Positions 6,821 through 12,457 of a stretch of DNA of 64,000 nucleotides are shown here, piece after piece; within the stretch, counting starts at the first letter, position 1, and each line of letters opens with the position of its first letter. Source of the DNA: Acidobacteriota bacterium (GTDB taxonomy: Bacteria; Acidobacteriota; Vicinamibacteria; Vicinamibacterales; UBA2999); assembly GCA_041178345.1 (NCBI GenBank), contig JBEGVQ010000167.1, forward strand, positions 8,986 to 72,985, given 5' to 3'. The notes under the pieces were generated by a model. The model saw only the letters and a list, made by a program, of their open reading frames with translations. It searched no databases and had not been told where the DNA came from. The position numbers and the translations under genes were made by a program.

Positions 6821-7645
6821 ATGGCCGTCCGCGCCACCGTAGAAGCCCTGCTCCGAGAGCGAAACCTCGACCGAACCCTCACCTCTGCCATTCCCGAACG
6901 CCTGGGGGAAGACGCGGTCTCGCCGCTGGACGTCGAGGCCCTTGATCGCGGACTCGCCGGTGGCTTGCCGCGCGGGCAGGTGTCTGAAGTGGTGGGACCG
7001 GCTTCGTCTGGTCGTACGGGACTGGTGTGGGCCGCGTTGGCGGCGGCGACCCGCCGTGGCGAAACCGTGGCCCTGATCGACACCTTCGATCGCTTCGACC
7101 CGCCGACGGCAGCGGCCTGCGGCCTCGTGCTGCCGCGCCTGCTGTGGGTGCGTGGCCAGGCGGTATCGAAAACCGCGGTGGCCATCGACCCGGCCTGGCT
7201 CCCGGGCGTGCGCGCGGTCAACGGCCCCGGCACGTTCGTCGAGCGGGTGATCGATCGCGCGATTAAGTCGCTGAATTTGGTCGTCCAGTCGGGCGTGTGC
7301 ACGCTGGTCGCGATCGACCTGATCGACGTGCCGGCGCAGGCGCTGCGCCGGTTGCCGGCCTCCACCTGGTTCCGCATCGAACGCGCCATTGAAGGCCGCG
7401 ACACGGCGGTCGTCATTCTCGCCGCTCAGCCGGTGGCTCGCAGTAGCGGCGGCCGATCGATCGCGATGGGAACCGACTCCCGTGTTTCGACTCCCGACTC
7501 CCGACTCCCGACTCCCGTCTGGAAAGGCGGCCACGATCGCACGCGCCGCCTGGGTGGTGTTCGCTCTGGCGCGGCCGTCTCGGCCGCCCGCTGGTTGCAC
7601 GCCCAGCCAGTCGCTGTTCACACCCGTTTCGTGCCCGCGGTGTAA
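6821..7645 (+). CDS. imuA: ImuA (RecA/SulA-like subunit of the mutagenesis cassette)
   Basis: 274 aa. LDRGLAGGLPRGQVSEVVGPASSGRTGL is the ImuA P-loop-like motif. The gene sits directly upstream of imuB and dnaE2. Confidence 0.75.
   Translation: MAVRATVEALLRERNLDRTLTSAIPERLGEDAVSPLDVEALDRGLAGGLPRGQVSEVVGPASSGRTGLVWAALAAATRRGETVALIDTFDRFDPPTAAACGLVLPRLLWVRGQAVSKTAVAIDPAWLPGVRAVNGPGTFVERVIDRAIKSLNLVVQSGVCTLVAIDLIDVPAQALRRLPASTWFRIERAIEGRDTAVVILAAQPVARSSGGRSIAMGTDSRVSTPDSRLPTPVWKGGHDRTRRLGGVRSGAAVSAARWLHAQPVAVHTRFVPAV
7474..7522. repeat. CGACTCC heptamer tandem tract inside imuA (family F1, minus orientation)
   Basis: cgactcc cgtgttt then 4 perfect cgactcc units (7488-7515) then cgtctgg. Encodes ...DSRVSTPDSRLPTPV. 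Confidence 0.9.
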
Positions 7646-7647
7646 CC

Positions 7648-12000: not shown

Positions 12001-12457
12001 TCCCGGCCATACAGTCGATAGTCCGCTGCCCGACATGAACGTCTCCGAACGCCTCATTGCCGACTACTCCGGTACCGGCCTCACTGTCGGCCCGCATCCG
12101 CTGACCTTCCGCCGCCACGAGCTGTCGATGCGCGGCGTGCTGCCGGCCATCGAGTTGCCGAAGGCGCGGGCGGGCCGCCGCGTGCGCACGGCCGGCATGG
12201 TGATCACGCGCCAGCGGCCAGGCACCGCCAAGGGCTTCGTCTTTCTCACCCTCGAAGACGAAACCGGCATCGCCAACATCATCGTCCGGCCCGATCTCTA
12301 CGCTACCGATCGCCTGACTATCATCGAGGCGTCGTTTCTCATGGTCGAGGGCGTGCTGCAGAACCAGGACGGCGTCACCTCGATCAAGGCCGAGCGGGTG
12401 TCGCGGCTGGCCGGCCTGCCCGACAGCGCAGCGATCGATTCGCACGATTTCCACTGA
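9062..12457 (+). CDS. dnaE2: error-prone DNA polymerase DnaE2 (ImuC)
   Basis: 1131 aa. PHP N-terminus [17 protein letters not shown], catalytic core ...[23 protein letters not shown]...[20 protein letters not shown], and a C-terminal OB region. The start is ambiguous (TTG 9062, GTG 9074 or GTG 9083). Confidence 0.95.
   Translation: [1131 protein letters not shown]
9295..9378. repeat. imperfect ~84-bp palindrome of GAAGTNAGAAG units in-frame in dnaE2 (family F3)
   Basis: Left arm gaagtcagaagggagaagtcagaagttagaaggg. Right arm ctcacttctcccctctcacttctcacttt is its approximate reverse complement. Encodes [27 protein letters not shown]. Confidence 0.9.
10800..10846. repeat. GGGAGTC heptamer tandem tract inside dnaE2 (family F1, plus orientation)
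   Basis: gggagcc gggagtc x3 gggtc gggagtc ggagatg. Encodes [15 protein letters not shown]. Confidence 0.9.
11636..11671. repeat. GAAGTGAAAAG-type repeat inside dnaE2 (family F3)
   Basis: gtaaagtcggaagtgaaaagtgaaaagccagaaggg. Encodes [12 protein letters not shown], immediately 5' of the zinc-ribbon insert. Confidence 0.85.

Follow-up and report, generated by a model that had tools for sequence, protein, structure and literature searches.

Period-7 and Period-8 Tandem Arrays Are Concentrated in the imuA-imuB-dnaE2 Mutasome Operon of Acidobacteriota

Introduction

Why would tandem arrays of 7- and 8-nucleotide (nt) units pile up inside the coding sequence of one particular operon? The question is raised by a 64,000-nt stretch of contig JBEGVQ010000167.1 (assembly GCA_041178345.1), hereafter the window, which derives from a member of the Acidobacteriota, class Vicinamibacteria, and has a G+C content of 67%. 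The window carries imuA-imuB-dnaE2, the operon encoding the ImuA-ImuB-DnaE2 mutasome, which drives damage-induced mutagenesis in many bacteria. An initial annotation of the window had described seven short-period repeat elements in the operon. Our census shows that the enrichment of such arrays in the mutasome operon is real and spans three classes of Acidobacteriota, and that, within about 4 Mb of sampled neighbourhoods, this operon is the sole place in acidobacterial coding DNA where period-7 and period-8 arrays pile up.

Results

Enrichment of Arrays in the Operon

As an array we counted any match of Tandem Repeats Finder (TRF) with a period of 7 or 8 and three or more copies. The counts cover sampled neighbourhoods rather than whole genomes, the relatives being mostly metagenome-assembled genomes (MAGs); the window itself was left out of sets 1 to 3. 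Across 80 dnaE2 loci from the three classes (set 1), the operon holds 166 arrays in 415 kb (0.40/kb) and the flanks hold 24 in 660 kb (0.036/kb), an 11-fold difference. Taken locus by locus, the operon is denser than its flanks in 36 cases and less dense in 4, with no arrays in 34. The operon-to-flank ratio of 11 applies to periods 7 and 8; periods 6, 9, 12, 15, and 18 show no enrichment in this set (0.043 versus 0.045/kb, ratio 0.95). Among the closest relatives of the window (set 3), density is 0.76/kb in the operon (121 arrays in 159 kb) versus 0.16/kb in the flanks (27 in 165 kb). Of 80 lexA loci (set 4), the five in which the operon adjoins lexA contribute 24 operon arrays in 29.6 kb, with 0.07/kb in the other DNA. 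Independent data sets give p values of 6e-42 and 1e-14 for the enrichment. The operon makes up 8.8% of the DNA of the window and holds 5 of its 12 period-7/8 arrays (binomial p = 0.0025), a post hoc value for a region picked for its repeats. In about half of the acidobacterial genomes sampled, the whole locus is free of such arrays, the operon included.

How do ordinary genes compare? Around 80 ppk loci of Vicinamibacteria (set 2, 1.46 Mb), array density is 0.148/kb overall and 0.031/kb deep in called genes, with none inside ppk; of the 215 arrays in these loci, those deep within called genes number 33 and are mainly chance repeats of high G+C content. A stringent filter, applied to all sets, demanded a minimum of 3.5 copies and of 80% matches, a unit G+C of at most 0.75, and a position at least 90 nt inside a gene. 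Under this filter the operon genes retain 84 arrays in 267 kb (0.315/kb), versus 9 in 1.67 Mb (0.0054/kb) for 1,832 control genes, a 58-fold difference; the control genes come from a crude caller based on G+C at third codon positions (GC3), which mis-called the purA region. Three of the nine control arrays are truly within proteins, namely HutH, a linker of FtsK, and KsgA. The rare in-frame arrays outside the operon include 5.3 copies of GATCAGG in histidine ammonia-lyase (locus L093, 19639-19674) and 12 copies of ATCCCGG in the FtsK linker (L237, 13604-13690). The excess that the initial annotation had proposed for this operon is real, and it is both stronger and far broader than a single window could show, extending over the three classes.

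The enrichment has sharp edges. Density is similar in the three unrelated operon genes (0.46, 0.38, and 0.48/kb) and reaches background at most 500 nt beyond the operon. The 80 lexA loci contain a single array in 48 kb of lexA, which is no excess, lexA being short and constrained and so a weak test of an effect on SOS genes. recA was not found in the fetched loci, where a probe of approximate E. coli RecA sequence matched only ImuA. Outside the phylum, arrays are absent from three plasmid-borne operons (two of Burkholderia, one of Gemmatirosa). A DnaE-family match was present in 1,231 plasmid records; dnaE2 genes among the matches listed span the query in about 3.05-3.2 kb, leaving no space for large insertions.

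The Operon and Its Seven Repeat Elements

The three genes form an adjacent, co-oriented trio with the domains expected of a mutasome cassette, and their order is kept in related loci (Table 1). Orthologues of imuA occur in 62 of 81 loci, those of ImuB range from 437 to 599 amino acids, and the window's DnaE2 is 81% to 51% identical to 80 acidobacterial orthologues. Translation of dnaE2 more likely starts at the GTG at 9083 than at the TTG at 9062. Upstream of imuA, the promoter and leader are nearly invariant in 20 related loci, and the sequence farther upstream diverges. The direct repeat GCGAA-N6-GCGAA, highly conserved in the window and in L161-L185, overlaps this promoter and is a plausible candidate for a LexA box of this clade, the site of an SOS-type repressor; lexA adjoins the operon in Pyrinomonadaceae.

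Table 1. Genes, repeat elements, and related arrays of the window
Feature	Position	Strand	Description	Basis
imuA promoter and leader	6766..6820	+	TTGACT-N17-TACAAT, operator-like direct repeat GCGAA-N6-GCGAA, Shine-Dalgarno GAGGTGA	Conservation
imuA	6821..7645	+	RecA-like mutasome subunit, 274 residues	Pfam RecA match, residues 42-108
imuA array	7473-7517 (feature to 7522)	+	Heptamer CCGACTC, 6.4 copies, including four perfect CGACTCC units; encodes TDSRVSTPDSRLPTP in frame	TRF
imuB	7648..8961	+	Y-family-like mutasome subunit, 437 residues	Pfam IMS_C match
imuB array	8638-8673 (feature 8637..8676)	+	Octamer GTGCTGAA, 4.5 copies; encodes QVLECSSAEVLKC in frame	TRF
imuB-dnaE2 spacer element	8960..9092	+	9-mer array GGCCACAGA, 3.2 copies (8978-9006), and inverted partner (~9066-9092)	TRF, fold
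dnaE2	9083..12457	+	Error-prone C-family polymerase, 1124 residues	Pfam PHP, DNA_pol3_alpha, finger, HHH_6, OB domains
dnaE2 site A	9295..9378 (arrays 9301-9329, 9342-9369)	+	Inverted pair of heptamer arrays (GAAGTCA-type, CTCACTT); PHP domain, residues 72-99	TRF
dnaE2 site B	10799-10841 (feature 10795..10846)	+	Heptamer CGGGAGT, 6.4 copies; between palm and finger domains, residues 572-588	TRF
dnaE2 site C	11646-11662 (feature 11636..11671)	+	Heptamer AAGTGAA, 2.4 copies; encodes VKSEVKSEK, just ahead of four-cysteine insertion	TRF
dnaE2 site D	11962..12008 (repeat 11962-11990)	+	15-nt direct repeat, 1.9 copies, and 9-bp hairpin; linker before OB fold, residues 961-976	TRF, sequence
Intergenic octamer pair	20053..20177	.	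Inverted pair of octamer arrays, family of imuB tract	TRF, sequence
Heptamer array upstream of DUF1175 gene	26282..26329	+	GACTCCT, 6.9 copies, family of imuA/dnaE2 arrays; upstream of likely start	TRF, translation

All seven elements of the initial annotation were located by TRF and by reading of the sequence, are present as well in two further contigs of the species (see below), and leave the reading frames open. They are short-period arrays with units of 7, 8, 9, or 15 nt, some of them arranged as inverted pairs. Site B and the imuA array are reverse complements over 34 nt (94% complementary, 10795-10828 versus 7488-7521) at a distance of 3.27 kb; recombination across this inverted repeat would invert the intervening segment and disrupt both genes, and no inverted allele was seen. 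Site C is the weakest of the seven, and in locus L001 its family occurs reversed (CACTTCT, 4.9 copies, 8562-8595 of that locus) in the corresponding part of dnaE2. The hairpin of site D, GGCCGGGAC-TTTA-GTCCCGGCC, directly follows the 15-mer repeat.

DnaE2 also contains a four-cysteine insertion of about 35 residues (CPKCGC...FCNVCSHEW, residues ~870-903, window ~11690-11791) that resembles a zinc ribbon and splits the HhH region. It is found in the window and its relatives within Vicinamibacteria and has no counterpart in proteobacterial DnaE2 or in that of other acidobacterial classes; arrays of relatives lie before and within it. Between the genome of loci L161 and L081 and that of the window, Ppk and an amidase are 96% and 98% identical, but ImuB is 83.5%, ImuA 88%, and DnaE2 90.7% identical. 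The mutasome proteins, ImuB most of all, evolve much faster than housekeeping enzymes.

Could the arrays serve to hold mutasome expression down? Such selected cis-regulation might act through RNA structure at a start codon, through patches of rare codons at which translation would slow, or through arrays that bind an RNA- or single-stranded-DNA-binding protein. The inverted 9-mer pair in the imuB-dnaE2 spacer folds into a stem over the dnaE2 GTG (fold of 8950-9110, minimum free energy -56.3 kcal/mol, z -2.85, none of 200 shuffles equally stable), and the junction is strongly structured (z < -3) in 36 of 77 related loci. GC3 is 0.63 in the tracts versus 0.85 in the rest of the operon; tract codons therefore do not follow the codon bias of the genome. 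Array sites also persist across classes despite turnover of their sequences, and there are precedents in heptamer repeats close to start codons of Beggiatoaceae and Nostoc that have been proposed to be regulatory, including those upstream of recF and recO (PMC4679880; bioRxiv 10.1101/2022.06.06.494920). However, the junction structure is missing where the spacer is shorter than 50 nt, that is, in about half of the loci, and the presence of several unrelated unit families in one operon cannot be explained by a single binding factor. Structures within an open reading frame (ORF) would be unwound by ribosomes. An inverted doublet that forms a hairpin is seen at the junction, at site A, and in many array pairs of relatives. 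Single arrays lack this form and do not fold alone, and the RNA fold of site A, with 25-nt arms that are 84% complementary, is weak (z -1.75). An Rfam scan of 6000-13000 returned only sub-threshold look-alikes of microRNA hairpins, on this same palindrome. Low expression could be reached more simply, by weakening the promoter or the ribosome-binding site. We consider selected cis-regulation unlikely.

Insertion Sites in Orthologues

Alignment of the three proteins with their orthologues places each tract at an insertion-variable site, at which relatives are empty or carry unrelated repeat peptides, in agreement with the initial annotation, which had taken the tracts for lineage-specific insertions at surface loops or linkers. 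Among 74 acidobacterial DnaE2 sequences, the tract residues of the window fall at alignment positions occupied in fewer than 15% of the others. The arrays of relatives cluster at window residues 60-99, 560-599, 820-900, 920-939, and 960-979 of DnaE2, and site A is an insertion hot spot in all three classes. Sites A and B align to loop gaps relative to E. coli Pol III alpha (PDB 4JOM), sites B and D lie between Pfam domains, and the linker of site D is variable in every relative.

ImuA has a single hot spot, between the conserved motifs GGRSI.MG and WKGxHDR, which in relatives is empty or filled by other arrays encoding, for instance, VPSRQEVPSRQ or IPDPGSRIPDPG. ImuB has three, of which hypervariable site 2 holds the window's octamer array and a different repeat-derived peptide in each relative. 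Relatives are empty or nearly so at some sites and have unrelated repeat peptides at others, for example GTGNREQ at three sites (L068) and IPDPGSRIP at two (L009). Judging from these alignments, the arrays are in-frame insertions at loops and inter-domain linkers that tolerate insertion, translated as low-complexity peptides.

Turnover and Spread of Arrays

The content of a site turns over between species. Species whose DnaE2 cores are 85-91% identical carry different units at one and the same site. At site B, every version begins on the conserved anchor AGC-CGGGA... and ends in ...GATCAGC, with arrays of CGGGATC, CGGGGTC, or a 21-mer on the shared anchor, and L165 and L168 are nearly empty there. 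The shared anchor points to local slippage, and not to foreign DNA being inserted again and again. Arrays at different sites within one operon co-vary, sometimes in reversed orientation (as in imuA and dnaE2 of the window and in L168), which argues for exchange between arrays. The arrays of site B thus seem to grow in place by slippage and inter-array exchange, and not by arrival of foreign DNA or transposition of a palindrome.

Transposition of a defined mobile palindromic element, similar to a MITE, REPIN, or Rickettsia palindromic element (RPE) and with a transposase that prefers the operon as its target, would account for the many arrays that are inverted pairs with a short spacer, for the dispersal of the families through the genome, and for an array span that is commonly about 30-32 nt. 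Filled and empty alleles show no clear target-site duplications, though, and constant element ends were not found. The arrays are periodic and variable in copy number, the common anchor at site B speaks for local growth, and no transposase was linked to the arrays, no systematic search for one having been made. We regard transposition as very improbable.

Unit families are genome-specific, dispersed genome-wide, and normally intergenic, with about 20-45 nt per array and often as inverted pairs. In 8 of 14 genomes, an operon unit is shared with the unlinked ppk locus of the same genome, versus 12.6% for mismatched genomes. The window follows this pattern, and the initial annotation was right that its operon families recur in intergenic DNA: TRF finds them, mostly between genes, at 18594, 20053/20142, 25517, 26282, and 48720. 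One family comprises the arrays at 7473, 10799, 26282, and 48720, a second those at 8638, 18594, 20053, and 20142, and a third those at 9301, 9342, 11646, and 25517. Also as annotated, TRF detects no period-7/8 array in ppk (55301-57472), purA (53202-54506), or hutU (49896-51572) of the window.

Do the arrays stem from the mutasome itself? Slippage-prone, template-switching synthesis by ImuA-ImuB-DnaE2 could make and spread them, preferentially in its own locus, either because the complex assembles beside its co-transcribed gene or because no other DNA is transcribed as heavily as the operon when the polymerase is there. The enrichment is confined to the transcription unit, ends abruptly at its borders, and is equally dense in the three unrelated genes, all of which would fit this self-inflicted mutagenesis, and the joint evolution of units within the operon, also in opposite orientation, fits template switching. 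A polymerase-contact explanation for the excess of heptamer repeats has been offered by Mrazek et al. 2007, as summarised in PMC4679880. But lexA, expected to be co-induced and located directly upstream of the operon in Pyrinomonadaceae, shows no excess, and copies of these families far from the operon have the density usual between genes. No translesion polymerase is known to have a cis preference, and the three plasmid operons from outside the phylum are array-free. Self-inflicted mutagenesis strikes us as distinctly unlikely, more so than cis-regulation.

Sequence Authenticity and Strain Stability

Two contigs represent independent assemblies of the window's species. L281 (JGI metagenome 3300043449) is 99.977% identical over 12.8 kb and L277 is 98.85% identical over 2,085 nt, both without gaps and both with the window's arrays, which are therefore not assembly artefacts. 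Four arrays are equal in length in L277 and the window, with 1 of 24 mismatches within an array region, and neither contig displays strain-level length polymorphism of an array. In about 100 short-read assemblies, whose consensus would hide minority variants, no frame break falls at an array; frame breaks are confined to nanopore MAGs, in which they are scattered over genes and mostly distant from arrays.

These data bear on the notion of a contingency switch, in which the non-triplet arrays, together with the 34-nt inverted repeat of imuA and dnaE2, would turn the operon reversibly off and on by frameshift or inversion, so that a lineage could abandon induced mutagenesis or regain it. Enrichment is limited to periods not divisible by three, all three genes offer targets, the imuA array includes four perfect units, and the inverted repeat is present. 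Against this, no length difference exists at the four arrays at 1.15% divergence, nor at any array in the 99.98% identical contig, and the arrays are short and imperfect (70-90% matches). Intergenic arrays share the same periods, and the period is hence no signature of selection in ORFs. The hallmarks of contingency loci, strain-variable repeat number and frameshifted OFF alleles, are lacking in L281, L277, and the short-read assemblies. Because neither frameshifts nor length polymorphism were found in these assemblies, the arrays do not appear to act as fast phase-variation switches, and of the explanations considered here we give the contingency switch the least credence.

Many MAG contigs end inside the operon (L163, L169, L171, L174, L176, L178, L180, L182, L185, L190, and L192), and in L169 and L171 N-gaps interrupt the imuA array.

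Other Arrays of the Window

Outside the operon, in-gene arrays of the window are limited to two genes. In the ORF at 17771-20053 (+ strand), a linker made of an octamer tract (18594-18632) connects a penicillin-binding transpeptidase domain with a SpoIID domain, and a 9-mer Pro/Ala tract lies at 19488-19527. In the gene of an alpha-2-macroglobulin homologue (20875-25572, - strand), a heptamer tract of the site A family (25517-25548) encodes the hydrophobic core of the signal peptide, MKLARSLILLTSLFSLLTSREASA. The spacers 20053-20177 and 6290-6420 contain terminator-like inverted pairs of short-period arrays, and similar inverted pairs stand directly at the ends of ppk in many genomes of the ppk control set.

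Discussion

Arrays of 7- or 8-nt units occur between genes throughout these genomes, and their coding copies are concentrated in a single operon. What allows them to accumulate there? The explanation that we favor, at slightly below an even chance, is tolerance in a normally silent mutasome, extending to frameshifted intermediates. The 7-8-nt periodicity would be an intrinsic step of the array-forming process. In ordinary genes, gain or loss of one unit would cause a frameshift and be purged by selection. The mutasome, by contrast, may be silenced most of the time by an SOS-type repressor, with a benefit that is mainly indirect and a need that is episodic, and insertions in its genes would therefore be nearly neutral. 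A frameshifted intermediate could then survive until a compensating slip restores the frame, such that non-triplet arrays accumulate. The hairpin at the imuB-dnaE2 junction and the rare-codon patches may, in addition, dampen DnaE2 output.

Several observations weigh against tolerance. Neighboring NmrA-like genes diverge as fast as DnaE2 (81-83% versus 85-93% identity), yet carry no arrays, which strains a simple version of it. Many control proteins must have linkers, yet in 1.67 Mb HutH, the FtsK linker, and KsgA alone carry an array, one each. Arrays are kept at the same sites across three classes, and this persistence suggests either selection for arrays or a locally raised rate of their formation. 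The frameshifted intermediates were not seen, in consensus assemblies that would hide minority variants, and it is the operator-like repeat, and no other feature, that hints at SOS regulation of the operon.

Two further candidates found no support. Relaxed constraint alone is one: by protein divergence, the operon cannot be told apart from its array-free neighbors. The other is a general effect on SOS-induced genes, since lexA shows no excess, although it is short and constrained.

How do the arrays relate to known repeat families? RPEs are non-periodic palindromes of about 100-150 bp that are spread over many unrelated genes of an obligate intracellular genus. The initial annotation had drawn a parallel with them, and as far as behavior is concerned the parallel stands: in both cases, repeats dispersed through the genome sit in frame in coding genes, at tolerant and variable surface positions, and are translated. 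Membership does not follow. The elements described here measure 20-85 nt, do not match the palindromic Rickettsia consensus, are periodic and species-variable, and consist of tandem arrays about 20-45 nt long with units of 7-9 nt. Their hosts are free-living, high-GC bacteria of soil and water, and their coding copies are concentrated in one operon; at site B, moreover, they seem to evolve in place. REP, BIME, and REPIN elements resemble our inverted pairs in forming hairpins at gene ends and in being present in many copies per genome. REPs differ in their invariant, non-periodic consensus, in their cognate RAYT transposase, and in their location outside ORFs, whereas the arms seen here are periodic, species-variable, and commonly inside ORFs of one operon. 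The operon arrays are thus members of neither the RPE nor the REP families.

A closer likeness is found in heptamer and other long simple sequence repeats (LSSRs), such as the cyanobacterial STRR, the TAACTGA repeats of Beggiatoaceae (PMC4679880), the Nostoc heptamers near recF and recO (bioRxiv 10.1101/2022.06.06.494920), and the LSSRs of Mrazek et al. 2007. Those repeats are tandem units of 5-11 nt, most commonly 7, found at many loci per genome, mostly intergenic, often abutting start codons, with occasional copies at the periphery of ORFs. The acidobacterial arrays likewise consist of at least three head-to-tail units within this size range, recur at dispersed loci, and are mostly intergenic, the mutasome operon excepted. 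In contrast, STRR and LSSR heptamers have been reported in other phyla, with one or few dominant units and with ORF copies that are rare or peripheral; the reports describe no concentration in a particular operon and none in imuA-imuB-dnaE2. Phase-variable contingency loci, among them repeats in mismatch-repair genes that modulate mutation rate, share with our arrays the placement of non-triplet tandem repeats within mutation-supply genes, and differ in that copy-number polymorphism and frameshifted alleles were not seen here and that the arrays are short, imperfect, and several per gene. Our literature search found no report of heptamer repeats in Acidobacteria or of tandem repeats linked to imuA-imuB-dnaE2, and the parts of two large family-wide surveys of DnaE2 and ImuB reached by a term search mention no such insertions.

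Beyond tolerance of insertions in a silent module, we speculate that arrays and mutasome could be mechanistically coupled, an idea that we find doubtful but somewhat less so than cis-regulation. The arrays might be scars of cycles in which a one-unit change knocks out a gene and another restores it, amounting to a slow, self-limiting switch, or the mutasome might write arrays into its own locus.

What does the finding mean for these bacteria? On the practical side, the arrays break short-read metagenome assemblies within the operon, and acidobacterial MAGs therefore probably under-recover and mis-annotate it, with the result that the mutasome is probably under-counted. With regard to biology, the mutasome operon is, in three classes of Acidobacteriota, an extreme outlier for non-triplet repeats that are otherwise kept out of genes. 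This would imply that selection on the mutasome module differs in kind from that on ordinary genes, or that array formation is tied to the module. If a mechanistic coupling were true, a machine that generates mutations would bear the mark of its own type of mutation, and the density of arrays would be a record of past mutasome use.

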